This document shows, piece by piece, positions 939 through 62,268 of a DNA stretch of 64,000 nucleotides. Both the position numbers and the translations under genes were made by a program. The notes below the pieces were generated by a model. That model had not been told where the DNA came from. It worked only from the letters and a program-made list of their open reading frames with translations, and made no database searches. This stretch comes from an uncultured virus (IMG/VR IMGVR_UViG_3300009060_000024). Its lineage: Duplodnaviria > Heunggongvirae > Uroviricota > Caudoviricetes. Location of the stretch: IMG/VR virus record IMGVR_UViG_3300009060_000024; one strand, given 5' to 3'. Position 1 is the first letter of the stretch, and every line of letters begins with the position of its first letter.

Positions 939-2447
939 CTAGTGCGTCTCCAAGCTAACGTCGCCATTAATGAGTTTGTATCTGTACTCCCCCGCGTTCT
1001 TACTGTACTTCCAGTAACTCTGCCTGAAAGCCATGTTATGGCTAACACCAGTTCGGGTACTGCCGTCATGAGCTGCCATCTCGATGCATTTATCTAGTGC
1101 AACGCAAATGAACTCATCCTTTCGCATGTTGAGGGTTGACTTGTCGATGTATACAGTGTTGGTGTTGTCCTTCCACACCCTCTCGGTTTTACTGTATCCA
1201 GCGCTCACACTCCCATCGAACCCAATCTCCCGAAGGAACCATCGGGCACGTTCGAGGTTTTTAACACGTTTTTTGGTCAGTTCATTGGTGCTGAGTGGAC
1301 GCATCTCCCACTTCATCTCTTGGTCGATTACATCCTCCATGCTGTATATGGAAGAGCTGTCAATAAGGTTTTTGACAGCATCTTCAAAGCTAGAGTCTAT
1401 TACTATGACCCCAGCCTCGTCCATCGCCTTGTCAGACATTTTGTTTTGTTTCATCTGGAAGGAAATCTTTTCATCCTTCAACTGTTCGATGCTCCACTCA
1501 TCCCCGGTAACGTCGGGAATGATCTCCTTGGACCCGAACTTCTCAAGAGCCCTGTCGTCTCCCTTTATGCTATCCAGAGTCCAGTTAACCTCGCGGCGAG
1601 TGAGATCGTCTTTGTCAAACAGATGGTCAAGTGTTAGGCCATCGATCTCTTGCTTGATGGTCTTGTAAACTATGCACGTATCGAGTATGTCGTTGCGTGC
1701 AAAGTTGACATCTAGGTCTTTCTTACTGACAACATTGGTTCGAGTTGCAGTAAGCTTCTCATCAGTTACGTATGCTCCTAGGTTATAGATGCTGGTATGG
1801 AAACGCCATGCATCATTAACCCCAATGCTGTAGTATGCGTTTTCAGTCTCGTAGTTGTAATCGAACTCCTCGTACAGTTCTTCTCCGTTTAGAGTGAGTT
1901 CAATGTCATGGAGCCACGGGATGTACTTTACCAACTTCTTCACCTCATTAACTGTGTGTTGAAGGCCGTCAATGAGATTGTACAGTTCTACCTCGATTGA
2001 ACATCCGTCGAACTCATCGGATGTGTTTAGGACGTTGTAAGACAGTCCAGAACTGTCTAGTTCATGAGTGTCTCCATCAACATTCACCACGGTGTGGTTG
2101 TTGTCGAGATCGACAACGAGAATGTTGTTTTTCGTGTGCCAGATGTTCTTTCCAAAGTTGAAAATCTGGCCACGTCCCATTCGGAACTTCCCGAACTCTT
2201 TATCTTCAATGTCGGAGTCCTTAAGTCCGAACTTCTGGAAGTAGTTTTCTATGTCCTCCTCGGACATTCCCTTGCCGTCATCTTCAACGACGACAGCATC
2301 GGTCTTGATGGAAACATCAACCTTTGACGCTCCGGCGTCAACGGAGTTCATTACAGCTTCAAGAACTGCCTTTTCTACGGTTCCAGCCTGCTTACGCATT
2401 ACGTCGTTTAGCAGACCTTCTGTTGCCTCGAATTGTCGTTTTGGCAT
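939..2447 (-). CDS. GHKL (Hsp90/MORC-like) ATPase
   Basis: EAVMNSVDAGA (N box), EDDGKGM (G1), GKFRMG (G2). Confidence 0.85.
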   Translation of the reverse strand: MPKRQFEATEGLLNDVMRKQAGTVEKAVLEAVMNSVDAGASKVDVSIKTDAVVVEDDGKGMSEEDIENYFQKFGLKDSDIEDKEFGKFRMGRGQIFNFGKNIWHTKNNILVVDLDNNHTVVNVDGDTHELDSSGLSYNVLNTSDEFDGCSIEVELYNLIDGLQHTVNEVKKLVKYIPWLHDIELTLNGEELYEEFDYNYETENAYYSIGVNDAWRFHTSIYNLGAYVTDEKLTATRTNVVSKKDLDVNFARNDILDTCIVYKTIKQEIDGLTLDHLFDKDDLTRREVNWTLDSIKGDDRALEKFGSKEIIPDVTGDEWSIEQLKDEKISFQMKQNKMSDKAMDEAGVIVIDSSFEDAVKNLIDSSSIYSMEDVIDQEMKWEMRPLSTNELTKKRVKNLERARWFLREIGFDGSVSAGYSKTERVWKDNTNTVYIDKSTLNMRKDEFICVALDKCIEMAAHDGSTRTGVSHNMAFRQSYWKYSKNAGEYRYKLINGDVSLETH

Positions 2448-2496
2448 TTGTGTTGCCTCCGGCGAGCAGTTGTGTATAAATATGCTTACTCAGGCA

Positions 2497-2536
2497 AACT
2501 CTCCTGAGGAGTCGAACCCCAGTACTCCAAAAGAGC
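2497..2536 (-). ncRNA. mini-tRNA element t1 (acceptor-like stem plus T arm)
   Basis: GCUCUU-UUGGAGUA-CUGGGG UUCGACU CCUCAG-GAGAGU. Confidence 0.65.
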
Positions 2537-2540
2537 ATTA

Positions 2541-2858
2541 TTAGAACATTGAATATACGTTGTGTGCAGTTACAATGATACCTATAATGAGTAACGTCAA
2601 AGGTATAACAGCAGAGTATCTGTCATCCATGATCCTCCATATAACTAGAAGGACGCCAATTATTAATATTTTGTCTAACAGTAGTCCGAACATTCCATAT
2701 CTGTGCATTAGCATTGCAGGGATTTGATTTCTCTCTGACAACCCCATGTAATGTATACCAGCATATGTGGTAGCCATATCTCCCAAACCGTAAACAGCCG
2801 AAGACACGACGACTATTTTTGTTTGGTTGTCGGATATTGATTTGGCAACTGTGTTCAT
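2541..2858 (-). CDS. small membrane protein (DUF5658-like)
   Basis: GLGDMATTYAG...ERN motif and 3 hydrophobic helices. Confidence 0.65.
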   Translation of the reverse strand: MNTVAKSISDNQTKIVVVSSAVYGLGDMATTYAGIHYMGLSERNQIPAMLMHRYGMFGLLLDKILIIGVLLVIWRIMDDRYSAVIPLTLLIIGIIVTAHNVYSMF

Positions 2859-3179
2859 GTTATGCTCATGGTAATGTACAACAGCAAAAACGCGATAATT
2901 GCAGACAGTACGATGTATGATACAACGATGAATTTGTTTACGGTCCTAATTCTCGACTGCATCTTTGTATCTTACAACGTTAACTAATTCGAGGTGCGAT
3001 CCACCTCCAAACTCGCCATTCATAGCATCTTCTGCATCCTGCTTCTGTTCCCATATGCTGTTTCCACTAGCGCTGGTAAGCATCCTGTTCAGATCTGTGT
3101 TAAGGATGCCGTAGTACACTCTACCACTCATGCGCACCATTCTTCCCGCACACTTCGCATTGCCTGGTCATTGTTTTAA

Positions 3180-3236
3180 CCTTGTTTCGCTGGCACCACC
3201 CAGCTCATCAGGCCGCTTTTGGCTACGGCGACAAAA
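3180..3236 (-). ncRNA. type III hammerhead ribozyme
   Basis: UUUU-GUC^-GCCGU agccaaaa GCGGC-CUGAUGA-GCUGG guggug CCAGC-GAAA-CAAGG; complete core and three stems. Confidence 0.92.
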
Positions 3237-3255
3237 ATGAGTCTTAGTACGTTAT

Positions 3256-3465
3256 TTATATAGTGCTGTCTTCACCTCGTTCATCAAGCTCATCTATTAT
3301 CTGCTCCTTCACTATTACATGCCACACGCTGGCCCTTTGATTTCTCATCAATTTGTTTTGGTCTATGAAATCATCTATCTGTTGCAAATAGTTTCTAAGG
3401 TCATCTGTTTCATGGTCTTCGATCTCTTTATCGTCTATCTTATTTGGTGGCTGTATAGTTGTCAT
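3256..3465 (-). CDS. hypothetical protein
   Basis: 69-aa acidic ORF. Confidence 0.65.
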   Translation of the reverse strand: MTTIQPPNKIDDKEIEDHETDDLRNYLQQIDDFIDQNKLMRNQRASVWHVIVKEQIIDELDERGEDSTI

Positions 3466-3488
3466 ATATACTTTGTTTTTGTTGGTTG

Positions 3489-3746
3489 TTAGATGTACTT
3501 GAATGGGTCTTTGTCCGTGTTGTTCAGTATGTCCTTGAGATGTCTTGCGTCTAGTTCATCTGGATCGGTAGATCGGCTAAGGCTAACATCACCAGCTTTT
3601 TCTCCCCAGTTGCAAGTAGGGCAACCATCTCCACGCATGAACTTTTCGTATGCGTCTTCAGGTTGATCGTCCCACTCAGGAACTTCATGGTGCAGTGAAT
3701 ACACTCCATACGGTTCTCCGCATTTCTTACAGTGTACGTCAGGCAT
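3489..3746 (-). CDS. small Zn-binding protein
   Basis: CKKC and CPTC motifs. Confidence 0.7.
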   Translation of the reverse strand: MPDVHCKKCGEPYGVYSLHHEVPEWDDQPEDAYEKFMRGDGCPTCNWGEKAGDVSLSRSTDPDELDARHLKDILNNTDKDPFKYI

Positions 3747-3892
3747 TATTTACATCTCCTTGATGATGTCAGCGGCAGTGACTCCATCAATACGTTCCGC
3801 CATTCGCATTGCGGCCTCTCCAGAAGTTAGGTTACGGTCAGACTGAAGGCCCTTGGTGTGCTTTACAACTTCGTCAATATCAATGTTTTCAT

Positions 3893-4036
3893 TCATAGTA
3901 CAGTCAGTCCCACAGCAACCCCACACTCACGGCATTCATAAATCTGTTCACTTTCGTATGTTTTGTCGTCAATAAGACTGAAATCGGTGCTGTTACATTC
4001 TGGCGATGGGCATTGTAGGCAATGTATGTCTTTCAT
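3893..4036 (-). CDS. Zn-ribbon microprotein
   Basis: CPSPEC and CREC; start moved to MKDIH, downstream of element t2. Confidence 0.6.
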   Translation of the reverse strand: MKDIHCLQCPSPECNSTDFSLIDDKTYESEQIYECRECGVAVGLTVL

Positions 4037-4067
4037 CTGTGTTTGTGGCAGTAGGATGCCAGCCAAA

Positions 4068-4107
4068 TGCCATTGAGAGAATCGAACTCTCACTATACCA
4101 ATATGGC
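4068..4107 (-). ncRNA. mini-tRNA element t2
   Basis: GCCAU-AUUGGUAUAG-UGAGAG UUCGAUU CUCUCA-AUGGC-A. Confidence 0.8.
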
Positions 4108-4355
4108 TAGTGTTTAGTTTCCGCAGAGATGTAACGGAGGGTGACTAATGCCGATCTGATCCCGTCATGCTCGTACCCGTCCGAATGGACTATTGGATCG
4201 TGGTCGCACCCCTTTGACCAAAAGTCGTCAACAAATATTTGATCGCACTCAAAGCAATAGTATACGTCTGGGGTGGCGGCGGTCTTTCCTTTTTCTTCCT
4301 TCTGGCGTTCTAGCGCCTCTTCTAATCTCCTGATTGCGTGTGGTATATCGTTCAT
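4107..4355 (-). CDS. hypothetical Zn-binding protein
   Basis: CFEC...CDH. Confidence 0.65.
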   Translation of the reverse strand: MNDIPHAIRRLEEALERQKEEKGKTAATPDVYYCFECDQIFVDDFWSKGCDHDPIVHSDGYEHDGIRSALVTLRYISAETKH

Positions 4356-5415
4356 TTATCTGATCCTCCCGTCTGAGGGCGACATCCACCAGCAGCAGAC
4401 TGAGCAGAACGACGGGTCCCTCCCATGAACGCAACGCTTCTTCGTGTCGTTCCGGACAATGGTTCGTTTCACTTCGCTCACGAGTCTCCCTCCTGCGAGG
4501 CGTCCGCAGAGGCTGAGAGTCGCTCAAACCGGATTGAACGAAGCTTGCGATATATCCAACCTTGAGGAGTGTGCATCAATGTGTAATGCTTGAACCATTC
4601 CCACTGGCAAATGAGAGCGTGTTCGCTCACCATCGACCACCCACAGTGACACGTTATCCGAAATCCGATTTCTGCCGACCTTGGGAGTCCGAAAATCCAC
4701 TCTTCCCCTCCTTGTTCAGTATCATTCGTCATCAATACTCATCAAATTTTACCCTGTGTTCGTTTCCATCTCTATCCGTCCACACCAAAACGCCCCCGCT
4801 AAGATCACCGAGACGTAGAGGTCTTTGTTCAGTTCTACCCATCTACTTCACCTCAGATTGTTTAGTTTCCGCTTCTGCTTCACTCACCAATTTCCAATCA
4901 ATAGAGTACGATACCCGATTTTTCAACATTAGTTGCTTAAGGGCTACACGTCCCCTGCGCCCAAATTCCTTAACAACCCTATCCTGCTCAACGGGTTCGT
5001 TATCTATTATAAATTGTTCAACTTCGTCCATCGGTCCATCGCCTCCTTCACGCTCATTTGTCCATATGTCCATTGTGTCCTGTAAGAGTTTCATAATCGC
5101 CGCACATCCATGCAAGGATGCGTTCAGCCTCCTCCTCGTCTTCCCGACGAAGAGATTCGGCTATGTAATGCTCTATGCTTGGATATGGTCTCTGTGTCAT
5201 TCCTACAAGGTCTTCGTTTCGTTTCATGTGTAATATCTACTCTTATCTAACGTCGTTCATCATGAACGATCCTACCATAGACAAAAAACACATGGAACAC
5301 AACACTATAGCAGCATCAACTCCATAATTAAAATACGAATACAATCCAATGATTGTTATACCGAACAGTGCAAATGTAGGACCAAATGCGTTAGGGTTAA
5401 CTATCGGTTCTGGTG

Positions 5416-5739
5416 TCATTTGTTCATCTCTGCTTCTTTGTATGTCTCAAGCCACTCTTTAGCGTCGTCATAGTTATTTCTTGCGGTGATGATTTTACCA
5501 TCGCTCCAAATATCACTGTTGACGCATTTCCAAACGTCATCTTCATTACGCTCTATACTTATTACGCATGTGTCAAACTCCACTATTTCAGCTTTTATTT
5601 GAGGAGTTTGTTTGCCTCTGTCCATGTAAGTGGCTATTGGACAGTCGTTATTAGAGCAATAATGCTGTTTTGGAGCCAGATCATGTGACACTTCTCCCTC
5701 TTCTTGATTGCACAGTGGACAATTAGTTTTAATCACCAT
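5416..5739 (-). CDS. hypothetical protein with N-terminal Zn finger
   Basis: CPLC...CSNNDC. Confidence 0.65.
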   Translation of the reverse strand: MVIKTNCPLCNQEEGEVSHDLAPKQHYCSNNDCPIATYMDRGKQTPQIKAEIVEFDTCVISIERNEDDVWKCVNSDIWSDGKIITARNNYDDAKEWLETYKEAEMNK

Positions 5740-5745
5740 TCTTAA

Positions 5746-5787
5746 TGCCCATCTCCAGAATTGAACTGGAGTTATACCAATATGGGT
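5746..5787 (-). ncRNA. mini-tRNA element t3
   Basis: CCCAU-AUUGGUAUAA-CUCCAG UUCAAUU CUGGAG-AUGGG. Confidence 0.8.
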
Positions 5788-6623
5788 CAGTCTTCGTGAG
5801 GGACAGGTGTTATTCCCTCACTTGTATTATGATCTCTGCTAATGTGTATAAGAACACGTTTTAGAGCGTCGCTTCTGTCACACTCATCATCATACATAAA
5901 GTACACTCCGCATTTGTCACATTTGTATCCATCGACCTTAAACATCGTTGTCCAAAAGATCGACTGCTACACTTTTAGACATGGATTCAATGCCATCAGC
6001 TATGTCTTCATCTCCAGCAACACTAAGGAAAACCTTAGCAGCAGTCATGCATTTGAACGCTTCCATTCTAAGATCGTATATCTCCTGATCTCTCTTTGAT
6101 TCGGTTTCGTCTTTTTCCATGTTGTTTTTGGTATGTTTGTCGTATAGGCACGTGCAGGCGTCGTGTGCCGTTTTGTGTACACAGGTACAAAGACACTTGT
6201 ATATGTCTACGCGGCCTGTGTGGGCTTGTGTGTCGGTGTATCGGGGCTTCGGGACTGCCGACCCCGGTTAGATGTAATTCCTCACGTTGTAGCTTGGACC
6301 TGTGCCAGTCAAAGCAGTGCCCAGATCGATGCCACAACCCTCGCAATTGTCAGTCAGTTCATCTCCGTGAGCGGGTTCGTTGTCAAACCCGCAAAATCTA
6401 CACTTCATTGTCATTGTGTGGTTACACTCCCCATGAAGGGTGCCATTACGTAGTGCTGATCATGAGCGAAGTTAGAATGCTCTATTGCGTCTTCCATTGC
6501 CTCTTTGTCGAGGTCATAATCTTCGTACATGAACTTTTCTTGGCAGCCTGTGCAGATGAAGCCTTTGTATTTAGACATCTTTTCTAACAGTATAACGTGT
6601 GTTGCTTTGTCATTTGTTTCTCC

Positions 6624-6676
6624 GCCTTTTAGCGTTACCCAGCCAGCACCACGAGGAGGTAAGGCTCTTGCTGGCC
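6624..6676 (-). ncRNA. HDV-like self-cleaving ribozyme (minimal) A
   Basis: P1 GGCCAGC/GCUGGCU (G1-U), P2 GCCUU/AAGGC, P3 ACC/GGU, L3 UCCUCGU, P1.1 CC/GG, J4/2 CUAA. Confidence 0.92.
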
Positions 6677-6779
6677 ATAAACTATGTTCGTTATGTGTTA
6701 GTGAGGAGTTCTATAAGCATTATTATGAACCCTGCTAACATCATCACCAATACAATTTCGATTAATATGCAACACATCT

Positions 6780-7289
6780 CTACATAGTCTCAATATTGTC
6801 TATTGAAGTTTCCCATATTGGAACAGCTGCATACCCATTGCCTCTAACGCTTACATCGAAGCGCAGGGCAAGGTACTTATCATCTCTCACATTGAAACCC
6901 TCCCTCTTTTTTGCCATCCTCTTGTACTTACGTTTGACATGATCACTCTGTAGTATGTTGGTTTTCCCAGACTCTAATCCGGGGCCAAATATCAGTCCGA
7001 ATTGGCATGGCCGAAGTTTACCTGTGACTTTGTACTTCTTTGATGTGTATTGTGGAGATTTTTCCGTAACCTCAGCCTCAAATGGAACTCCTTCTGCATC
7101 CATTTTCTTTGACTGAGTGTATGTCTTGTTAGCTCTTGGAGTTCTATCAACTGCCTTTTCAATTGACCTCGCAATCGTTTCGTATTTGTACACTTTCTCC
7201 GCTTTAGTGTACGGAGACTCCAAGAACCTTACTCTGTACTTCTTTTTTGTACCAAGCGTGTAGTACGCTATTTTATCTGACAATGACAT
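6780..7289 (-). CDS. hypothetical basic protein
   Basis: 169-aa K/R-rich ORF. Confidence 0.7.
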   Translation of the reverse strand: MSLSDKIAYYTLGTKKKYRVRFLESPYTKAEKVYKYETIARSIEKAVDRTPRANKTYTQSKKMDAEGVPFEAEVTEKSPQYTSKKYKVTGKLRPCQFGLIFGPGLESGKTNILQSDHVKRKYKRMAKKREGFNVRDDKYLALRFDVSVRGNGYAAVPIWETSIDNIETM

Positions 7290-7291
7290 TT

Positions 7292-7744
7292 TCAGTCTTC
7301 GATCATTGGTTGCATGATTTCATTCCATGTGTCTCCATCGGTGCTTACTTGGTTTATAGGAGCTCCAACTCTACCACACAACCATTTAAACGCCGCTGAC
7401 GAGTCGCTTATCTGGTACTTGTCATGCTGATACGTGTATAAATGTACCATCTCATGCAACAAAGTCATCTTTATCCGATCATCCTGTTCGCACTCTAGGT
7501 ACGATTGGGAGAATCTGAGAAAGGTATACTTCCCACCATCTCGGTAAAAAGCCTTTGCATTAGCGCGTTTTATGCGTGATGAAACTTCGATGAAGTCACA
7601 TTTAATCTCCTCGGGGAACTTTTGTTCGAGATCATCAAACCATTCGTTAAGTTTGTCTTCCCACTTTGAGTGAGGGTAAGTTCTGTACGGATGGTTCGCA
7701 CCGTTATTTTTGTCTGGAACTCCAGTTAAGTCGTGTATTCCCAT
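7292..7744 (-). CDS. SprT-like zinc metalloprotease
   Basis: TLLHEMVHLY motif preceded by a SprT-like beta region. Confidence 0.8.
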   Translation of the reverse strand: MGIHDLTGVPDKNNGANHPYRTYPHSKWEDKLNEWFDDLEQKFPEEIKCDFIEVSSRIKRANAKAFYRDGGKYTFLRFSQSYLECEQDDRIKMTLLHEMVHLYTYQHDKYQISDSSAAFKWLCGRVGAPINQVSTDGDTWNEIMQPMIED

Positions 7745-8538
7745 TATTGATTGATGATCATGGAGAAAACATCTTTTGCCTTCTCCAATTCACCGATTTG
7801 TACAAGGCCTGAAATGTAATCGAACAGTTCGTCTTCACCAGATAGTACAAGTGTTAACTCGACATGTTCAGACTCTCTGTCTTGCTGCTGTTCGTCTTCG
7901 TCGTCATCGTCTTGTTTGTTTATGATTCCTTGGTCAACAGCTTTTTCTATGATCTCGTCTGTGTCTGGCGTTTTCTTGAACCAGTTTTTGAGTTCGTCTT
8001 CGACAAATCTGTCATCTGTCATCCAACCCTTGGCCGTGATTGTACTTGAAACAGTTGAGTGACTCTCATACCCCATGTTATCAGCTATTGCTCTGTATGA
8101 CATGTCTGGGTTGTTGTAATGCCACGCGAGAGTCTCCTGCCTGTCTTCAGATAAGTCGCTGAAGGTTGTGACAGGTGGCCGTCCCATAAGAGTATAATGA
8201 ATGTCTTCATCCTGAAGGATTCTGACAACCTTGTCCTTTGACTCTCCTGAAAGATCGCAGACCTTATCAATCTCCTTGTTGGAGATGTCGGGTCCAAGAC
8301 CGTCCACGTTGCCAGACTGTATACGCTTGAACGCCTTAACGATCCTCATGTAATTGGACATTTCAGGATCGGAAGGTATGACATCTGGGTACACTCGCAT
8401 GATAAGGTCGTCTGTTGACCTCCCCCTGTGAGCAGAGTCGTTCATGCTGTTTATGTGCTGTACAATGCGCTTTCGGACACTTTTAGTCCTTCCACAAGCG
8501 CGGCACTGGTACTGTAACTCAGTCTCGTCTACTGTCAT
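7744..8538 (-). CDS. Zn-finger/HTH transcription regulator
   Basis: CRAC...H...H and SYRAIADNMGYESHSTVS HTH. Confidence 0.7.
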   Translation of the reverse strand: MTVDETELQYQCRACGRTKSVRKRIVQHINSMNDSAHRGRSTDDLIMRVYPDVIPSDPEMSNYMRIVKAFKRIQSGNVDGLGPDISNKEIDKVCDLSGESKDKVVRILQDEDIHYTLMGRPPVTTFSDLSEDRQETLAWHYNNPDMSYRAIADNMGYESHSTVSSTITAKGWMTDDRFVEDELKNWFKKTPDTDEIIEKAVDQGIINKQDDDDEDEQQQDRESEHVELTLVLSGEDELFDYISGLVQIGELEKAKDVFSMIINQ

Positions 8539-8800
8539 TGTTTTGTTCTACGGGTTCTGCTTCTGACTCTTCGTGTGTGTATGCGTTGAACAGTTTGTTT
8601 TGAGCCCCAACGCAAATGATGATAGAATCTCTTGCAAATTCTAACTCATCCCCGTATTCCTCATGTGGAAGGGTATTAATGGCACTTCTGTACTCCTCCA
8701 TCATGTTTTTATTCGACTGAATGAGTGCTATTAACTCATCCTCTGTTAGATTTACTTGATACGTCATTGTTTGATACCATCCTGTTTTCTGGATGGCTGA

Positions 8801-8860
8801 TGGCAGGTTAAGGGAGTTGAACCCATGTTATATGTCCCACCAAACTGGGTAACACCTGCT
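8801..8860 (-). ncRNA. tRNA-like element t4 lacking the anticodon arm
   Basis: GCAGGU/ACCUGC stem; D-like arm CCCA-GUUUGG-UGGG; T arm GGG-UUCAACU-CCC. Confidence 0.7.
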
Positions 8861-8890
8861 ATATAGATAACCGTTATGGCTGTGAGTTAT

Positions 8891-9247
8891 TTAATACTGA
8901 AACTCTAGAATATACTTGATCTTATCTGCTTCGTCGTAAAGCTGTCCTGTGACATCTCCTCGGATGTGGAGTTCTATCGTGTCGTCGCAACCACACTCCT
9001 TGATTTTATTCTCCCCGAAGTAACTCATCAACGCTCCATAAATCTCTAAAGGAGTGTCGCCTTGATACCGTTCAATTGCTTTGCATGACTCATCTATTTC
9101 GTCATACACAGACTGTTCGATGTCTCTGATCTCGTCCTCGCTTTCGTAGTCAGTGTCTTCAATATTTCCAATTGCTGACTTGGCTATCTCTCGACCAGCG
9201 CTGTATGCGGTATGCCGTATCTCGTTTGTGAATGGATTTTCTTTCAT
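8891..9247 (-). CDS. hypothetical acidic protein
   Basis: ORF; start MKENP follows element t5. Confidence 0.7.
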   Translation of the reverse strand: MKENPFTNEIRHTAYSAGREIAKSAIGNIEDTDYESEDEIRDIEQSVYDEIDESCKAIERYQGDTPLEIYGALMSYFGENKIKECGCDDTIELHIRGDVTGQLYDEADKIKYILEFQY

Positions 9248-9258
9248 TTTTACCCCAA

Positions 9259-9300
9259 TGACCATCCTGAGAATTGAACTCAGGCAATACCAGTATGGCT
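9259..9300 (-). ncRNA. mini-tRNA element t5
   Basis: GCCAU-ACUGGUAUUG-CCUGAG UUCAAUU CUCAGG-AUGGU. Confidence 0.8.
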
Positions 9301-9318
9301 AATTCTGTTATACCTGTG

Positions 9319-9723
9319 TCAGTAATGGCTGTGGAACGACTTGTATTCCTCAGTCATAACATCATTATACGCATCTTTGTCTATAGTATAGACAAGCCAC
9401 ACAGAAAACTCTTGCCCGTCCTTTGATTCCCTACTTTCCTCACCATACTCAACATGAGATACTCTACGAAGCTCTATCACACCATCTCGGGCGAGATGTT
9501 TTAGAACAACTGCGGGTTTCGTACTCCATGAAATGTTAGTATCAGCATCCATCCCATGTACTGTAGGGGTGAACTCATGCTTGTTTTCTTCGCGGCATCT
9601 AACATCTATCTGATGCCCAAATCCGTTTACTTCTGTTATCCCAAACTGACCATCTAGCCAGTTAGCCATCTTTTCTCCAACGCTCAATTCTTCTACCTCC
9701 ACTGTTTCTTGTTTATCTGCCAT
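9319..9723 (-). CDS. hypothetical protein
   Basis: ORF; start MADKQ follows element t6. Confidence 0.7.
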   Translation of the reverse strand: MADKQETVEVEELSVGEKMANWLDGQFGITEVNGFGHQIDVRCREENKHEFTPTVHGMDADTNISWSTKPAVVLKHLARDGVIELRRVSHVEYGEESRESKDGQEFSVWLVYTIDKDAYNDVMTEEYKSFHSHY

Positions 9724-9741
9724 TGTTGGGTTTTCGCCCGA

Positions 9742-9783
9742 TGCCCATGATAGGAATTGCACCCATTCGATTCTATTATGGGT
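9742..9783 (-). ncRNA. mini-tRNA element t6 (divergent)
   Basis: CCCAU...AUGGG UGCAAUU CCUAU-C-AUGGG. Confidence 0.6.
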
Positions 9784-9784
9784 A

Positions 9785-10132
9785 TTATGTTCTAGGTATA
9801 ACTAATTCATCGTAGAAAGACCAATCTATATCTTCCACTTCGTCATCTGCTCTCTCCTGTAGTTCTCTATGTTCACTTTCTGCCATTCCAATCGCGTCTA
9901 TTCCTCTTGTTCTAGCGTCAACAAAGAACTCCACCGCTTCTTGTAACATGGTAGAGTGGTAAACCATCTCATGTTCTTTGTCTAGTTCAATTTGTCTCTC
10001 TGTTAGTTCTTCGTCCGATTCGTCTAATTTAACTTGGTGGGTCTCTTCTGCTGTTTCGTCTGGGGGGTAGAATCTGTCCGCTGTCTTTGCTCTCTCCCAA
10101 CATAACCATTTTAGGAACTCGTGTTCGTTCAT
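9785..10132 (-). CDS. hypothetical acidic protein
   Basis: ORF; start MNEHE follows element t7 and a GCAA hairpin. Confidence 0.7.
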   Translation of the reverse strand: MNEHEFLKWLCWERAKTADRFYPPDETAEETHQVKLDESDEELTERQIELDKEHEMVYHSTMLQEAVEFFVDARTRGIDAIGMAESEHRELQERADDEVEDIDWSFYDELVIPRT

Positions 10133-10156
10133 TGTATTGCTGCCCTTGCGGGCGAG

Positions 10157-10199
10157 AGCCATATAGGGAATTGGACCCTATGCTAACACCAGTATGGCT
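10157..10199 (-). ncRNA. mini-tRNA element t7
   Basis: AGCCAU-ACUGGUGUUAGC-AUAGGG UCCAAUU CCCUAU-AUGGCU. Confidence 0.75.
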
Positions 10200-10202
10200 A
10201 AG

Positions 10203-10276
10203 TGCGACAGGTGGGATTTGAACCCACAACCTCAGCCTTATAAGGACTGCACTCTACCTAGTTGAGTTACTGTCGC
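10203..10276 (-). tRNA. tRNA-Ile(TAT)
   Basis: GCGACAG/CTGTCGC-A; CAGTC-CT TAT AA-GGCTG; T-loop TTCAAAT. Confidence 0.9.
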
Positions 10277-11210
10277 CCGAAGATTGTTATTATTCTATTC
10301 TGTCTTATTGCTGGACCCCATTATTTGAGTTGTCTTTGATGCATGGCTTACACGTCCACCAATCTTTACCGCATGACTCGCATGCATCAAATGGAACTCC
10401 GTCAAAATTTGAAACAACTGTGTTACCGCAATGGTGACACTCCCATTTATATTTAACTACATTCGACATAGCTTGCACCTCTTATTACTCCCGTCCAGTT
10501 CTCTTGCTAATGGTACACCACACTTCTCACAGTGTTCTCCCGTTAGCGTGTACTTCTGTGTTATCATTGTTCTGGATTGGTTAGTAAGCTCCTTATGTAT
10601 GACGAAGTTACATCATGACAGTTAACACTCCATGGTTCTTGCATTTGACCTCCATGTTTGTTTTGGTTGTGACTACACCTCCGTCAATCTCAGTTGATCT
10701 GACGGGGAACTCGCTTTTTATTAACTCGTTACCACAGTACGGACAGTATCTGAAGTCGCAAACTCCAGATATTTGTGTGCGTTTATCTGATGACATCTTA
10801 ACGAACCCTCGTAGCCGATTCGATAGCAATTCTCGACAGCGTGATTGATGCTGGAACGCAGAACAGAATCGAAATTGCCATCATCATCATTACAACTGAC
10901 CCGCCGCCAATAACCCTAAGGATGTCAGCGATTATTATTGAAGCTGTTATTACAGGCGCAAGCCCTCCGAAGCTTCCATCTGACATTGGGTTTATCTCCG
11001 TAAGCAGAGGGTATGATGACAGTATCAGTATGTATGCGTTAAACATCAACTGTTCTGCCAGTTGCATTGTCTATCGTGTATAGGTGTTAGTTTTGCCGTG
11101 TTTGGGGCAGATGAACTTTTCTCCCTTTCGGATGCAACGGGCCTCGCAGTTGTTACAGTATCGTGCGCTGTACTCCAGGTCGTTTCCGAACTCCTCTAGG
11201 TCTACCATTG

Positions 11211-11416: not shown

Positions 11417-11471
11417 ACCTCGTTCAGTGTTAACCGAGGGAAGCTCTGGGAGCTAAGAGGTTACAACCCTC
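11417..11471 (-). ncRNA. HDV-like ribozyme B (variant)
   Basis: P1 GAGGG/CCCUC, P2 ACCUC/GAGGU, P3 AGC/GCU, L3 UCCCAGA, GG, UUAACA, CUGAAC. Confidence 0.7.
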
Positions 11472-11518
11472 GTGTACGTATAATTGTCGCCTGCGCGCAC
11501 AAACGGCGCGCTACCCCT

Positions 11519-12322: not shown

Positions 12323-12330
12323 TGTGTGCA

Positions 12331-12386
12331 ACTGCATCTTAGTGTTAACCAGAGCCTACCACGAGGAGGTGTGCAGTGCAGGCTCC
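12331..12386 (-). ncRNA. HDV-like ribozyme C
   Basis: P1 GGAGCCU/AGGCUCU, P2 ACUGCA/UGCAGU, P3 ACC/GGU, L3 UCCUCGU, GG, UUAACA, CUAAGA. Confidence 0.9.
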
Positions 12387-12403
12387 GTAAAGAAAGAGTG
12401 TGT

Positions 12404-12947: not shown

Positions 12948-12958
12948 GTGTGCAGTTC

Positions 12959-13010
12959 CCACGTTCAGCGAATCACTCCCAGCTCTTGAAGCTAAGTGGT
13001 ACTAAGGAGC
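12959..13010 (-). ncRNA. HDV-like ribozyme D (variant)
   Basis: P1 GCUCCU/GGGAGU (G1-U), P2 CCAC/GUGG, P3 AGC/GCU, L3 UUCAAGA with compensatory P1.1 UC/GA, UUCG, CUGAAC. Confidence 0.75.
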
Positions 13011-13030
13011 GTGTGATCGTATCGTGTGCG

Positions 13031-13576: not shown

Positions 13577-13635
13577 TGTGTCCTACGTTTGGTTGATCCA
13601 GCACCAGCTCGGGGAGCTAAGTAGGCACAGGCACC
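13577..13635 (-). ncRNA. HDV-like ribozyme E (variant)
   Basis: P1 GGUGCC/GGUGCU, P2 CCUAC/GUAGG, P3 AGC/GCU, L3 UCCCCGA, GG, CCAAAC. Confidence 0.7.
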
Positions 13636-13781
13636 GTATAATAATGGCACTAAACCCTACTGGTTTTCTGTAGGGATTAGTACCAGTCGGTATCGTATCG
13701 AATACCCACTACTTCTTCAGTCTCGTCATCGAGTTCCCAGACTGCTCTGTCAGTGGGGTGCGATCCGGTTTGGCTCATCGT

Positions 13782-24388: not shown

Positions 24389-25303
24389 CTACTCGTCCTC
24401 TATGTCCATAACCTCACGTACCTGGTCCTCTGAACGGTCGTGTATATACGCGGATATTACTTGTGTGTTTGGCCCGTGTACCAACTGGTGCCGAGCTATC
24501 TCTCCTGGCTCGAATCCAGCCCAGTCGAGGTGAGTAGCTCTTGTGTGCCTCATTGTCTTAGGCATTATATTCTTATTTGAATCTATGCCAGCCTGACGAG
24601 CGTACTTTTTGGACATTTTATATATCGAATCATAGCTTATCCGTCCATGACTTGTTGTGAACAGAGGATGCACAGTCTTTTCTTCGTCCTCTATTTGTTT
24701 TATCTCCTCATGGTCCCCTCTCTCGTACTTGTCCATATACTGGTCAAGTGCTGACTTACAATTATCTTTGAGATTGAACGTTGCTCTGAACTCGTTTCCA
24801 TCTGTTGTGCGTTGCTTCTTGAGGATGGTAAATGTTATAGTGTGTACATCTTCATCCTCGTCATATCCTATATCCTCCTCATTGAGCAGTCTTATCTCTC
24901 CCGGCCTGCGTGCATACTCATACATCAGAAGGAATATTGCCCTATCTCTGTAGTTATATATAGACCCGATGAATTGTTTCCATTCGTCTTCGGTTAAGAA
25001 ATCTCCATGGTCGGTGCTAGGTTTTGGGAGCCACTGCTGCATATGCGTTATATCTCTGTTGTCTCCATGTATTGTATCAAAATAGTATTTTATAGAATTG
25101 AAGTATTGATGGATGCTGCTTGCTTTTATGTCTCCATCCTCATACCTTTCTATCATGTGGTCAACCCATTCCTCTACATCATCTACTGTGGGTTCACCTT
25201 CTCCGATGAAATCCTCTAGGTTTTTGAGTGCAGACATTCGTGTCTTCATGGTGACATCGGACACGTTGTGCTTCGTGCGCTTCTCGTATGTGTCTAGTTT
25301 CAT
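24389..25303 (-). CDS. tyrosine recombinase (Xer/integrase-like)
   Basis: ARRPGEI, K, MRHTRATH, LVH, AY catalytic residues; N-terminal SAM-like domain. Confidence 0.92.
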   Translation of the reverse strand: MKLDTYEKRTKHNVSDVTMKTRMSALKNLEDFIGEGEPTVDDVEEWVDHMIERYEDGDIKASSIHQYFNSIKYYFDTIHGDNRDITHMQQWLPKPSTDHGDFLTEDEWKQFIGSIYNYRDRAIFLLMYEYARRPGEIRLLNEEDIGYDEDEDVHTITFTILKKQRTTDGNEFRATFNLKDNCKSALDQYMDKYERGDHEEIKQIEDEEKTVHPLFTTSHGRISYDSIYKMSKKYARQAGIDSNKNIMPKTMRHTRATHLDWAGFEPGEIARHQLVHGPNTQVISAYIHDRSEDQVREVMDIEDE

Positions 25304-27591: not shown

Positions 27592-28581
27592 TCATACTCT
27601 CGGTGATATTGTCGTTCCCCATTCTATTTTGTTGAGTATAACGAGCCAAAAAAGGCTCGATGTACATATCATCGCTGCAGTTGTCCAACCTATATCAGGA
27701 ATGCATATAACAACAAATCCAAACAGAGACATTCCCTCTATACTAGACATGTTTCTCAGTCTCTTCTTCCTATTATAACTCCCTGTAAACATTAGGGAGT
27801 TTGAAGCTAGATAGCGCAATAGCATCAGTAATACAAACACAGAAAACACCATCCATCCGCCCCCAAGAGAGTGTATCGCAAGAGTTCCAAATACGAACAT
27901 TGCGAAGTCAAATGCCGTGGCCATCATCTGCGCGTGTTCAGAAACGTATATTGTTGAATCGCCTGCTTGAGAGCCTAATGCTATCAATAGGTTGGATTCG
28001 TCCTGCATTATATCCTTCATCTCTCCAGACACTGCTATCTGGTACATAACCCATACAAACACATACATACACATTATCCAAAACAGTGGTTCTATTGGAC
28101 CTCCAGAGTATAGATAGGCAGAAGCGAATACAGTTGTATGTGCTATTGAGATTGGTATTGATTTGAAGTCGGTTTGTTTGCCGTACATGTTGTACAATAA
28201 CCCTGATGCTATACCAACACATATTGCCAATACAGCCATCATAGAGCTGTGAATACTCCCTTGAGTAAACACGAATATCAGCCACACGACAGTCAATAAA
28301 AACATCCCGGTGACAAACACTCTTGCACTTTGGGGAGATAAAGTTCCTTTATTTAGAGGGTGATGCTTCTTATTCTCGTCCTTTTTGTCGTATCCTTTTG
28401 CCCAGTCCAAATAGCTATTGATCCCATAACCTGCGAGATGGTATAGCAGTCCGAACACAGCCCAGTAAAAAACATTCATGGACAGCACGCTCCCAGTAGC
28501 TATTGAAGCTCCCATTATAGCTGGAACGGTCTCTAATGGAGCTGTATGCGCTCTTGTAAGTTGAAGGTATTGTTTAATCAT
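27592..28581 (-). CDS. UbiA-family prenyltransferase 1
   Basis: YLQLTRAHT, NSYLDWAKGYD...HHPL..G, GEMKDIMQD, many TM helices. Confidence 0.88.
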   Translation of the reverse strand: MIKQYLQLTRAHTAPLETVPAIMGASIATGSVLSMNVFYWAVFGLLYHLAGYGINSYLDWAKGYDKKDENKKHHPLNKGTLSPQSARVFVTGMFLLTVVWLIFVFTQGSIHSSMMAVLAICVGIASGLLYNMYGKQTDFKSIPISIAHTTVFASAYLYSGGPIEPLFWIMCMYVFVWVMYQIAVSGEMKDIMQDESNLLIALGSQAGDSTIYVSEHAQMMATAFDFAMFVFGTLAIHSLGGGWMVFSVFVLLMLLRYLASNSLMFTGSYNRKKRLRNMSSIEGMSLFGFVVICIPDIGWTTAAMICTSSLFWLVILNKIEWGTTISPRV

Positions 28582-38017: not shown

Positions 38018-38959
38018 CTACCGGATGAAATACTCTGTTAAGAAAGGAATCACAAATGAAAGCATCACTCCGGCATAGTACCACATCCAGCTCGGGTGGT
38101 TTCCAGTTCGGCTATCTATCTTGTGAGGATTAACAGCCATGTGGTATAGCATAAATAGGCAGAATGGTATTATAAGTAACATGGAAGATAAGTCTCTGGG
38201 TACAATGTTCATTGAAATACCGAAAGACATAACAGCTATCATCATGAACATCGACCCAGAAGCTATTACAGATACTCCTTTAACACCGTACATTACCACA
38301 AATGTCTTTATATTATGAGATGCGTCCACCTCTCTGTCAATTATATCTGCCGAGTTTTGGAAACCTAGGACGTAGAAGAACATGAACAGCCCCAGAGTCC
38401 ACGGCAATGCACTATACACATTTCCATACGCTGACCAAACTACTGGAAAGCTCAACAGTCCTCTGCTTACAGCTTGCCATGGTATACTTATCCTTCTCTC
38501 TTTAGCTCTTATAGGACCAAGATTATAAAACACGCCGAAGAATATTGTGACAGTCATCATCATACCAAACTGAGTGTCTACCATGTAAGCTCTACCAAGA
38601 GATATTAGTATCAGTATCCAAGCCAGCGTTCTAGCCTCGTCAACTGACACAAGCCCGGACGGTATCGGCCTGTTTCTTTTATGCTCTGTTTTGGCATCCA
38701 TATCAGCATCTTCTGCCATGTTAAGGGTTTGAGATGCTCCATGTGCAAGAGCCACTGTTACAGTTGCAAACACAACATTTGCCCAATTTGAAATTATACC
38801 ATGTATATTGTTATGATAGTAGAAAAAGAATAGAGATCCAAACAGGAACGCTACAGACATTCCTACCGTACTTGCTGGCTTTGTAAGGTCTATATACGCT
38901 CTTATTCTCTCTGGTACAATGCTTGTTCTACTGTAACTCTCCCCTAGACCCCATTTCAT
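38018..38959 (-). CDS. UbiA-family prenyltransferase 2
   Basis: YIDLTKP, NMAEDADMD...RNRPIPSG, DIIDREVD. Confidence 0.92.
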   Translation of the reverse strand: MKWGLGESYSRTSIVPERIRAYIDLTKPASTVGMSVAFLFGSLFFFYYHNNIHGIISNWANVVFATVTVALAHGASQTLNMAEDADMDAKTEHKRNRPIPSGLVSVDEARTLAWILILISLGRAYMVDTQFGMMMTVTIFFGVFYNLGPIRAKERRISIPWQAVSRGLLSFPVVWSAYGNVYSALPWTLGLFMFFYVLGFQNSADIIDREVDASHNIKTFVVMYGVKGVSVIASGSMFMMIAVMSFGISMNIVPRDLSSMLLIIPFCLFMLYHMAVNPHKIDSRTGNHPSWMWYYAGVMLSFVIPFLTEYFIR

Positions 38960-60823: not shown

Positions 60824-60896
60824 TAGTCCCGTAGAGATTCGAACTCTAGTCCTCGGCTCCAAAGGCCGATGTGATTGGCCGCTACACCACGGGACT
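60824..60896 (-). tRNA. tRNA-Gln(TTG)
   Basis: AGTCCCG/CGGGACT-A; TCGGC-CT TTG GA-GCCGA. Confidence 0.95.
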
Positions 60897-60900
60897 CAGA

Positions 60901-60989
60901 CGGCAGGACTGGGATTTGAACCCAGAGTGGAGTCATTACCTCCGGCTGGTTCTCAAGACCAGTGCATTGCCAGATTCTGCCATCCTGCC
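60901..60989 (-). tRNA. tRNA-Ser(TGA)
   Basis: Long variable arm; CTGGT-CT TGA GA-ACCAG; G73. Confidence 0.95.
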
Positions 60990-61055
60990 ACATATTATTT
61001 TAACTCTTTGTTAGCATCTCTATATACACGACCACACTAATAAATTTTGTGCGTG

Positions 61056-61328
61056 TTATGCGTCATTGTGTTGGTCTACCATTGGTATGCTCCTTTCTTC
61101 ATCCTTTGGTATTGGGTTTCCGTCTTGGTCGAGCATTATTGTGTCATCTGGGACGTTAGTGCGTTTATACACTGTACGTCTCCCGCATTCAAAGCACTTC
61201 ATGACAGGAACGTCATCGTACTTTTTGTTTATCCATATTACCCGCATACAATCATTATGCATGCAGTAGTATGGGATCTCTTCTTGTTGCGTCTTTACAG
61301 ATCTGCTGTATGTATCGTTATGTCTCAT
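61056..61328 (-). CDS. Zn-ribbon protein
   Basis: CMHNDC, CFEC. Confidence 0.65.
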   Translation of the reverse strand: MRHNDTYSRSVKTQQEEIPYYCMHNDCMRVIWINKKYDDVPVMKCFECGRRTVYKRTNVPDDTIMLDQDGNPIPKDEERSIPMVDQHNDA

Positions 61329-61476
61329 TCGTACCCCCAATTATCATCTTCTGGCTCTTCCTCCGACCATCCACATTGCACACATATTTGTTTGTCCAAT
61401 AATGCACTTCGGTTAAAATGGCCGCAATTAGGACACGTCCAGCGGTTGTATGTTTCAACCATTTAATCACCTCCAA

Positions 61477-61549
61477 AGCTACCAGAGGGATTTGAACCCC
61501 CGACAACATCCTTACAAGGGACGCGCTCTACCAACTGAGCCATGGTAGC
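61477..61549 (-). tRNA. tRNA-Thr(TGT)
   Basis: CGTCC-CT TGT AA-GGATG; U73. Confidence 0.95.
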
Positions 61550-61554
61550 ACTCA

Positions 61555-61627
61555 CGGACATGACGAGACTCGAACTCGCGATCTAGAGGTTAGGAACCTC
61601 TCGCCTTGTCCACTAGGCCACATGTCC
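61555..61627 (-). tRNA. tRNA-Arg(CCT)
   Basis: AGAGG-TT CCT AA-CCTCT. Confidence 0.95.
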
Positions 61628-61763
61628 AAATGGCTGCTTAGGGCAGCCAATCCGACTACGGGTGCGTATTGTGACGATCATATCTCAACCCTCACTGACC
61701 AGGCAAGGGTGCATCTGTTCCTTGCTCTCCCCTCTATTTAATATTGCGCCGAGGAGGCGCAAG

Positions 61764-61837
61764 CGCCTGCCCGAGGAATCGAACCTCGAACCTTCTGGGT
61801 AACAGCCAGATGCTCTACCAGGTTGAGCTAGGCAGGC
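61764..61837 (-). tRNA. tRNA-Asn(GTT)
   Basis: TCTGG-CT GTT AC-CCAGA; G73. Confidence 0.95.
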
Positions 61838-62079
61838 TTATAGGGGATTTTATGCCTCCCCCACAGAGCATCGGCACTCCAACACGCCACCATTACACAA
61901 TTTGTGAATCCTGATGTTAAGTTCAGGCTTCACCATCCCACGTGTCAATTGTCCCGACGAATCAACCTATCGAATGAGGTCTACGTTGTTGTGTACTCTA
62001 TCTTCCGTGATATGATACGAGTTATGGTAGCAGGTAAGCTCTCGCTCGCGTGTCAATGTGGCATGTTTTACATGCCGAG

Positions 62080-62152
62080 TGGACCACCTCGGATTTGAAC
62101 CGAGATCTGCACGTCCCAAACGTGCAATGATACCAAGGTACACCAGTGGTCC
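62080..62152 (-). tRNA. tRNA-Pro(TGG)
   Basis: GCACG-TT TGG GA-CGTGC. Confidence 0.93.
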
Positions 62153-62155
62153 AAA

Positions 62156-62268
62156 TGGGAGTGGGAGGGATCGAACCCCCGTCACAGATGTCATGATTGA
62201 GTTAGCGACATATGGCAATTTTGTTTGATGCTCACCATTACTGTGACATTCCATTAAATTACACTCCC
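62156..62268 (-). ncRNA. atypical tRNA-like RNA (~113 nt)
   Basis: Acceptor GGGAGTG/CACTCCC-A and T arm GGGGG-TTCGATC-CCTCC, but the anticodon arm is replaced by a branched insert. Confidence 0.7.

Follow-up and report, generated by a model that had tools for sequence, protein, structure and literature searches.

Anticodon-less transfer RNA-like elements between the genes of an uncultured tailed virus: probable processing sites in a polycistronic transcript

Introduction

What do short transfer RNA (tRNA)-like units without an anticodon arm do when they recur between the protein genes of a virus? The question is raised by a 64,000-nucleotide (nt) stretch of DNA from an uncultured virus of the Caudoviricetes (IMG/VR record IMGVR_UViG_3300009060_000024), the whole of which is called the window here. 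A sequence-only reading had pointed to seven such units, hereafter mini-tRNAs or minis, and had proposed that they are sites where host tRNA-end enzymes cut the transcript, or else decoys that mimic tRNA. Here we document their fold, covariation, placement, spread among viruses and likeness to the ends of an archaeal processing signal, the "t-element" of Haloferax volcanii. On the sequence comparisons made here, we consider it probable that they are viral t-elements punctuating a polycistronic transcript.

Results

A Family of tRNA-Like Elements Without an Anticodon Arm

All seven sites are present where the sequence-only reading had placed them, in a train of genes spanning ~0.3–16 kilobases (kb); they are read, however, on the minus strand, which is the sense strand for every gene of that train. 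The consensus that it had given for the family describes five sites well (4069-4107, 5748-5786, 9261-9299, 9744-9782 and 10158-10198), whereas 2498-2536 and 8803-8859 diverge from it.

These five elements, of 39–41 nt each, form the core of the family. Their outer strands pair as an acceptor stem, NCCAU/AUGGN, of 5 base pairs (bp), with 6 bp possible in 10158-10198 (as 10157-10199). The linker that follows (9–13 nt) begins AYUGGU and reads AYUGGURU, with AAUAGAAU as the variant in 9744-9782, and leads into a T stem of 5–6 bp, after which the 3′ strand of the acceptor stem comes directly or after one base. The 7-nt loop, U[UCG]CRAUU, is that of a tRNA T arm and retains U54, C56 and A58, the latter two being invariant. 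As had been claimed, the T stems covary: the five copies all differ in T-stem sequence and every one is complementary. When compared by eye with the tRNA-Thr of the window, the linker stretch AUUGGUA resembles a D loop without its stem (A14, U16, U17, G18, G19, U20, A21). With the T-loop nucleotides kept and a linker that looks D-loop-like, the earlier proposal of a preserved tRNA elbow holds, and the unit is a tRNA reduced to its acceptor/T-arm helix plus the elbow. Across 35 distinct sequences, acceptor and T stem together amount to 10–13 bp (10 bp in 5, 11 in 12, 12 in 10 and 13 in 8), and the commonest linker length is 10 nt (17 of the 35).

Two covariance models were used for scoring: R1, built from the five core copies and one outside copy and run with filters off, and R2, for which 48 sequences from many lineages were used. 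The seven elements are as follows.

10158-10198, minus strand: e10157, mini-tRNA (putative t-element), 47.2 bits with R1 and 40 bits with R2, 3 nt after tRNA-Ile
9744-9782, minus strand: e9742, mini-tRNA, 48.6 bits with R1, linker AAUAGAAU, T loop UGCAAUU
9261-9299, minus strand: e9259, mini-tRNA, 57.6 bits with R1
8803-8859, minus strand: e8801, divergent tRNA-like element of 57 nt, with acceptor, D and T arms when folded in context
5748-5786, minus strand: e5746, mini-tRNA, 56.5 bits with R1
4069-4107, minus strand: e4068, mini-tRNA, 55.8 bits with R1, ortholog at L078:1114-1152
2498-2536, minus strand: e2497, divergent mini-tRNA-like element, 13.5 bits and E-value 0.28 with R1, 13.8 bits (partial) with R2

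The two divergent elements differ in kind. e2497 reads GCUCU / UUUGGAGUA / CUGGGG-UUCGACU-CCUCAG / G / AGAGU, which is the core plan with other stem sequence and one additional base, and it is probably a member of the family. e8801 combines a 6-bp acceptor stem with a D arm (CCCA/UGGG) and with a T arm that is interrupted by a single U-U mismatch, and the anticodon arm is absent. The five core copies are thus a firm family, and e2497 and e8801 are divergent tRNA-like elements in the same style.

The core copies stand out sharply from the rest of the window. The pattern CCATANTRG..TNCRATTC..ATGG occurs at exactly these five places on both strands of the 64 kb, with 0.00 occurrences expected from 100 shuffles. 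R1 returned 37 matches at E-values up to 10; the five core copies scored 47–58 bits, the best match outside the training set was 2498-2536 (e2497, at the score listed above), and at 8803-8859 the T arm only was recognized (9.7 bits). With R2 the five copies scored 40–55 bits, and the next match was the T arm of tRNA-Asn (17.4 bits). ARAGORN predicted 9 tRNAs in the window, none of them at the seven sites, and the 10 Rfam matches at gathering score are all tRNAs elsewhere. Even at E-values up to 10 the tRNA family RF00005 gave no match at the seven sites, which are therefore not canonical cloverleaves, and no family for the minis was found in Rfam 15.

The Fold Is Maintained by Compensatory Changes

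Relatives of the window were hard to find by conventional means. A megablast search with positions 2300-10500 gave no match among named phages, and tblastn of three window proteins against named phages gave two distant Acinetobacter-phage matches for one protein and none for the others; a protein-guided search of IMG/VR with two window proteins returned no relative. A search with the motif itself found a metagenome contig that is syntenic with the window, in opposite orientation and at 65–85% nucleotide identity. This relative, M (contigs L074 and L075 merged), bears four minis, and the short contigs L078 and L095 bear one each.

Among the 11 distinct sequences of the window lineage, 95.9% of cells are paired, compared with 72.4% in shuffles, and 29 cells are changed on both sides, compared with 9.4; neither value was reached in any of 500 shuffles. 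RNAalifold, given no structure, predicts the same fold for these minis. Over all lineages (45 distinct sequences), pairing holds in 92.7% of cells and there are 126 both-side changes against 44.3 (0 of 500 shuffles), in alignments that were fitted to the model and for which the search patterns demanded CCAU/AUGG; covariation there can be judged fairly only from the T stem and the first acceptor pair. One copy from a 197-kb gut phage, which was not chosen by the patterns, has the acceptor stem CCCUG/CAGGG, and so the CCAU/AUGG stem can covary too. The structure of the minis is under selection.

Likeness to the t-Element of Haloferax

In H. volcanii, a tRNA-like t-element lies upstream of the 5S ribosomal RNA (rRNA), whose 5′ end is made by a tRNase Z cut, and when two copies flank a CRISPR RNA (crRNA), RNase P and tRNase Z release the crRNA in vivo (PMC4326828, PMC4946936, PMC3296008). 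This flanking arrangement is a tool of the Marchfelder laboratory. The ends of this element can be read from published primers. Primer itele1 starts where the downstream t-element does (PMC4326828, Table 1). Of two further primers (PMC7521656, supplementary Table 7), crtI#6iPCRdo joins a spacer to the same start, and crtI#6iPCRup links the reverse complement of the spacer and of the 8-nt handle with the final ten bases of the upstream t-element. The element therefore starts with ACCGAU-AUUGGUAU-GG and ends with AUCGGU-A, which implies a 6-bp acceptor stem and one unpaired base after its 3′ strand.

Both ends share the plan of the viral elements (ACCGAU/AUCGGU compared with NCCAU/AUGGN), and the linker AUUGGUAU, placed directly after the stem, is identical in the H. 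volcanii t-element, e4068 and e5746. The last bases before the 3′ strand in H. volcanii are UUG, which would be consistent with a T stem abutting the acceptor strand, as in the minis. All five core copies combine an acceptor stem with a T arm of tRNA T-loop consensus (40–58 bits), as would be expected of a t-element of the Haloferax 5S type. The settings differ: the Haloferax element is cellular and belongs to an rRNA operon, whereas the window elements are viral, lie between protein genes at five to seven per 8 kb, often precede a hairpin and vary in stem sequence among copies.

The tRNA-like t-elements of plant mitochondria have a conserved T arm and ends that coincide with mapped 5′ and 3′ ends of messenger RNAs (mRNAs), and RNase Z and RNase P have been proposed to act on them (PMC1920247). 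They are organellar, cloverleaf-like and few per genome, and are likened to the minis by structure and role, not by sequence. The sequence-only reading had named the Haloferax 5S element and these plant elements as precedents, and the choice proves right. The same logic holds for the transcripts of animal mitochondria and for tRNA-mRNA co-transcripts, in which tRNA-shaped units between the genes set the points at which the transcript is cut, although those units are working tRNAs, whereas most units here lack an anticodon arm. In the mascRNA/MEN-beta family (RF01684), RNase P and RNase Z excise a tRNA-like unit from a longer RNA; this family belongs to eukaryotes and has retained an anticodon-like arm, and its best match in the window, to e10157, is weak (19.2 bits, gathering score 42.5, E-value 4.2).

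The Elements Occupy Gaps of a Co-oriented Gene Train

Every one of the seven elements falls in a gap of a single co-oriented gene train. The stretch from 2.4 to 14 kb has 18 gaps of at least 25 nt, of which 13 hold a structured element: 7 minis, 1 hammerhead ribozyme candidate, 2 candidates resembling the hepatitis delta virus (HDV) ribozyme and 3 copies of a pseudoknot motif. The remaining 5 gaps are unassigned, and some may be coding.

On the upstream side, some elements touch or overlap the end of the preceding open reading frame (ORF). The UAG of the upstream ORF shares its G with acceptor position 1 at e4068 (window 4107-4109) and at two places in the relative (M 2501 and M 5341), the UGA of the ORF upstream of e5746 abuts position 5786, and a UAA lies two bases before position 9782 at e9742. 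On the downstream side, the earlier observation of a small hairpin between several elements and the next AUG is borne out at 4 of the 7 sites, where that AUG lies 9–36 nt past the element. These hairpins, and the tRNA gene beside e10157, are listed below.

10142-10153, minus strand: hairpin GCCC-GCAA-GGGC, between e10157 and the next AUG
9728-9739, minus strand: hairpin GGG-CGAAAA-CCC, after e9742
8776-8797, minus strand: hairpin GCCAUCC-AGAAAACA-GGAUGGU, after e8801; kept in the relative
4046-4061, minus strand: hairpin UGGCA-UCCUAC-UGCCA, after e4068; kept in L078 and the relative
10202-10276, minus strand: tRNA-Ile(UAU), predicted by ARAGORN, 69.8 bits with Rfam, directly upstream of e10157

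Complete tRNAs of the window are placed in a comparable manner. In the cluster at 60824-62268 (minus strand), a ribosome-binding site or start codon follows 3–10 nt after tRNA-Thr and tRNA-Gln, and GC hairpins follow tRNA-Pro and tRNA-Asn. Since the cluster tRNAs precede ORF starts or hairpins, real tRNAs and minis occupy the same kind of place. The same cluster contains, at 62156-62268 (minus strand), a 113-nt tRNA-like sequence (RF00005, 30.4 bits) interrupted in the anticodon region by an insert of ~45 nt. This may be a tRNA with an intron, as would suit an archaeal host.

Two further features of the gene starts were considered. Many start codons (e.g., at the gaps ending at 2448, 11406, 12338 and 12797) have much the same short leader in front of them, approximately UGCACA(C)AAUG or CAACACAAAUG, which could be a shared initiation context. 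The idea that the AUG within the acceptor strand serves as the start of the next gene was rejected, as it is in frame in only some copies, at about chance level.

Ribozyme Candidates in Other Gaps of the Same Train

Several gaps of the train contain candidates for self-cleaving RNAs.

6606-6678, minus strand: HDV-like ribozyme candidate in the gap 6579-6779, RF00094, 40.6 bits (gathering score 50), E-value 0.0026
12330-12386, minus strand: minimal HDV-like ribozyme candidate, RF02682, 30.5 bits (gathering score 44), E-value 0.011; kept in the relative
3179-3237, minus strand: type III hammerhead candidate in the gap 3141-3255, RF00008 over its full length, 28.2 bits (gathering score 48.5)
11417-11472, minus strand: nested double-pseudoknot motif, copy 1, with P1, P2 and hairpin AGCUC-NNN-GAGCU in HDV-like topology
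12958-13011, minus strand: nested double-pseudoknot motif, copy 2, with the same parts and topology
13582-13636, minus strand: nested double-pseudoknot motif, copy 3, with the same parts and topology

P1, P3 and L3 are present in the HDV-like candidates. The ortholog of 6606-6678 in the relative shows a compensatory change in P1, and the 3′ strand of P2 in 12330-12386 contains the AUG at the end of the gap 12338-12403, which is the start of the next ORF as called. In the hammerhead candidate the core CUGAUGA..GAAA..GUC is complete and three stems can be seen by eye; its E-value of 1.6e-4 is valid only for a 141-base search, and a run over 7.9 kb did not list the candidate.

No Rfam family matched the pseudoknot motif. 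In four sequences (the three window copies and L074:1680-1760), 98.4% of its cells are paired and 12 are changed on both sides, a pairing score that is favored by the structure having been derived from these same four sequences. P1 and P2 covary, the hairpin is invariant, and the joining strand is like that of the minimal HDV-like candidate. On this modeled structure, the motif may be a variant HDV-like ribozyme. For the two HDV-like candidates a viral precedent exists in the theta ribozymes, small HDV-like ribozymes that phages use for RNA end formation beside their tRNAs (PMC10879173). Theta ribozymes are reported only from gut Caudoviricetes and stand next to tRNAs, whereas the candidates of the window lie between protein genes of a virus that is probably adapted to salt.

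Mini-tRNAs in Other Viruses

Pattern searches followed by inspection of T-stem pairing showed that the motif is not confined to the window lineage. The T stem is fully paired over 5 bp in 6 of 10 pattern matches in IMG/VR, and fully paired in 53 of 96 in metagenome contigs (27 distinct cores), but in none of 41 when 596 Gb of genomes of bacteria and archaea were searched. With both closing letters of the T stem set in the metagenome pattern and one of them in the other, at most 4 pairs were free to vary. Unrelated carriers comprise marine, gut and other phage contigs, and among complete phage records the 197-kb gut phage has 3 clustered copies and a 69-kb phage has 1. The five to seven copies within 8 kb of the window are the densest among the cases examined. 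Outside the window, neighboring ORFs are co-oriented with the element in 17 of 20 elements (18 loci), and 11 of the 20 are clear of any ORF call of at least 60 amino acids.

Some candidates were set aside. A BLAST search with one element against phages and plasmids (E-values up to 10) returned mostly T arms of ordinary tRNAs. The two matches that were inspected, the "tRNA-OTHER" of Pseudomonas phage ZY21 and one in the crAss-like cr10_1, are full-size odd tRNAs and not minis. Of 11 loci from a first IMG/VR pattern, L009 alone has a real mini, and three are full tRNAs in which the anticodon arm matched by chance.

Three groups of outside sequences show additional features. In phage tRNAs of tRNA arrays at L002:2988-3057 and L007:2973-3047 (and in L008), the anticodon arm reads CCCAU-AUUGGU-AUGGG, the same letters as stem and linker of a mini; ARAGORN labels these "tRNA-???" with a two-letter anticodon. 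Each mini of the 197-kb gut phage (L018:60-130, 1975-2040 and 2298-2365) is preceded by a conserved GUCUGUGAAGAUAGYGUUGAUUU-like stretch of ~25 nt, and the repeated unit of this phage is therefore longer than the mini. Marine-type contigs (L013, L019, L063, L071, L073 and L076) have a single mini 12–17 nt after an AT box (CTTATAAAAAATG or AGTATAAATATG) and an AUG ~30 nt after the mini, an arrangement that resembles a 5′-leader element with a promoter-like AT box.

Elements at the Borders of Exchanged Genes

The comparison with the relative shows that copies of the element, and the genes beside them, have changed places. The relative's copy of e9742 (L075:3565-3603) is 92% identical over exactly 39 nt, with unrelated flanks, and adjoins the hairpin and gene found downstream of e4068 in the window. 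The element of the relative at the e5746 position most resembles e9259, and at the place of e8801 the relative has a canonical 39-nt mini before the matching downstream hairpin. Three additional mini-plus-gene units occupy 8.8–10.2 kb in the window, where the relative lacks them, and its tRNA(UAU) has no following mini, unlike tRNA-Ile of the window. The minis thus coincide with differences in gene content. Their position at such borders may simply follow from their being repeated, or it may reflect a second role.

At the place of the missing mini, L074 ~2090-2190, CUUAG-GA-AUGGUC follows tRNA(UAU) where the window has its mini, which reads like a precise absence with flanking letters left.

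Discussion

A Processing Model and the Points That Weigh Against It

Of the readings considered, a processing site is the best supported by comparison, through the t-element plan with its linker AUUGGUAU, the tRNA context and the ribozyme candidates in gaps of the same train. We infer transcription, cutting, the enzymes involved and the consequences for the messages as follows. The gene train would be transcribed as a long minus-strand polycistronic RNA in which each mini folds as a tRNA-like top half, an elbow on a stacked helix of 10–13 bp, to be read by the host enzymes that trim tRNA ends. A tRNase Z cut after the unpaired base following the 3′ strand would yield a downstream message with a short leader and a 5′ phosphate, a new end that the hairpin might shield in four cases, and RNase P may cut before position 1 and so define the 3′ end of the upstream message. 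Where the UAG overlaps the element, translation could precede cutting, or messages without a stop could result as in plant mitochondria; alternatively, tRNase Z might act alone, so that the upstream message would keep the mini as a structured 3′ terminus. Some plant t-elements do leave messages that are cut inside the reading frame and have lost the stop codon (PMC1920247), and these parallel the UAG overlap at three elements of the window and relative M. The ribozyme candidates in other gaps would do the same job without host enzymes, and the repeated elements would also mark the borders at which gene cassettes are exchanged between related viruses.

We tentatively propose a wider version of this model, which is possible although we would not favor it as it stands. 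The early train might be a "punctuated operon" in a probably haloarchaeal virus, in which nearly every gap is furnished with one of several interchangeable cutting modules (t-elements, minimal HDV-like, hammerhead and pseudoknot of HDV topology) that double as cassette borders, the t-element module being an as yet undescribed RNA family spread over marine, gut and soil phages.

A number of observations weigh against processing at these elements. An RNase P cut at the UAG-overlap sites would produce a message without a complete stop codon, a point in favor of tRNase Z acting without RNase P or of the upstream part being degraded. With only 5–6 bp the acceptor stem is short, and enzymes that read shape would not explain the near-invariant CCAU/AUGG, an invariance that the search patterns partly imposed. 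The likeness to Haloferax covers 21 nt at the 5′ end and 10 nt at the 3′ end, both taken from primers. Neither covariance model recovers two of the seven sites (e2497 and e8801), three of the seven have no downstream hairpin, and every ribozyme candidate falls below its Rfam gathering threshold.

Alternative Explanations

The excised minis of ~40 nt could themselves be the product, either as elbow mimics that sequester or misdirect a factor of the host (for example RNase P, the CCA-adding enzyme, an enzyme that modifies the T loop or a defense nuclease directed at tRNA) or as small regulatory RNAs, with excision merely the means. Five to seven copies within 8 kb of one transcript, strong conservation of the elbow-forming nucleotides, a CCAU/AUGG stem conserved beyond the need of shape-reading enzymes and the three clustered copies of the complete gut phage would all suit such a role. 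Lack of an anticodon arm excludes anticodon nucleases as the target, however, and a partner protein conserved beside the elements was not found in the loci examined; the position just before gene starts, the four hairpins and the ribozyme candidates in equivalent gaps are left unexplained, and we regard this reading as unlikely. The same holds, at a similar level of doubt, for the view that the elements act mainly as DNA, i.e., as recombination repeats at cassette borders whose tRNA likeness is a leftover of their origin. Here the promoter-stem-loop repeats of T4-type phages and the folded attC sites of integrons serve for comparison. The e9742 copy that is joined to the hairpin and gene of e4068 between unrelated flanks, the three units missing from the relative and its tRNA(UAU) without a mini are what such repeats would leave behind, and a tyrosine recombinase (integrase) gene lies at 24389-25303 (minus strand). 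Recombination alone nevertheless requires neither compensatory stem changes nor a tRNA-specific loop and linker; ORFs are co-oriented with 17 of the 20 outside elements, and the same plan is an RNA processing signal in Haloferax. Moreover, any repeat can shuffle as a by-product, and both readings can hold.

Two other explanations fare worse. The intergenic repeats of halovirus HF2 carry promoters (PMC8707807), and by this precedent the AU-rich part of the linker could be a TATA box with the transcript starting near the 3′ edge of the element; by eye, UAUA lies in the linker ~25 nt before the 3′ end of e4068 and e5746. The stretch differs in all five copies (UAUAG, UAUAA, UAUUG, GUUAG and AAUCG), unlike what repeats of the HF2 type would need, and the HF2 motifs quoted by that source are different sequences. 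Covarying stems and a tRNA T loop are not predicted by a promoter either. With its TATA-like stretch unconserved and the fold unexplained, we rejected this reading as highly improbable. We give still less credence to decaying tRNA pseudogenes without function. Although e8801 resembles a tRNA that has lost its anticodon arm and tRNA genes are present in the window, compensatory changes keep the family in a relative of 65–85% identity and in unrelated viruses, the core copies number five where 0.00 were expected, and a precise plan of 39–41 nt is common to all of these copies.

Host Range of the Family

Proteins predicted from the gene train have an acidic composition (18.6% aspartate plus glutamate, 11.1% lysine plus arginine), and some families, such as DUF63 and an MCM-like ATPase, hint at archaea. 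The assumption of the sequence-only reading that this is a halovirus is plausible and agrees with the acidic proteome and the link to the Haloferax t-element; a haloarchaeal virus is likely. The motif also occurs in a human-gut phage and in marine contigs, and since these lineages carry it, the mini family is not confined to archaeal viruses. Separately, we noted two UbiA-type prenyltransferase genes in the window, at 27592-28581 and 38018-38959 (both minus strand).

Implications

Our literature searches found no account of tRNA-like processing elements that occur in multiple copies in a phage or an archaeal virus. While t-elements themselves are already known, their multi-copy use between protein genes of a virus, their mixing with ribozyme candidates and their recognizable family in unrelated phages appear to be new.

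If the elements are cut as proposed, a compact genome would make many defined messages from one transcript with no promoter for each gene, by borrowing the host enzymes that trim tRNAs and mixing them with self-cleaving RNAs. Viruses would then join plant organelles and one cellular rRNA operon as places where t-elements are known, and an RNA family that is absent from Rfam would be defined in unrelated phages. For Haloferax genetics, where the single t-element is already a tool, the viral copies would provide natural, sequence-diverse processing cassettes. It would also become possible to test whether repeats that serve RNA processing are linked to the reshuffling of small genes among viruses. 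Finally, should the punctuated operon prove real, the punctuation of mRNAs via tRNA enzymes would be a general viral strategy.

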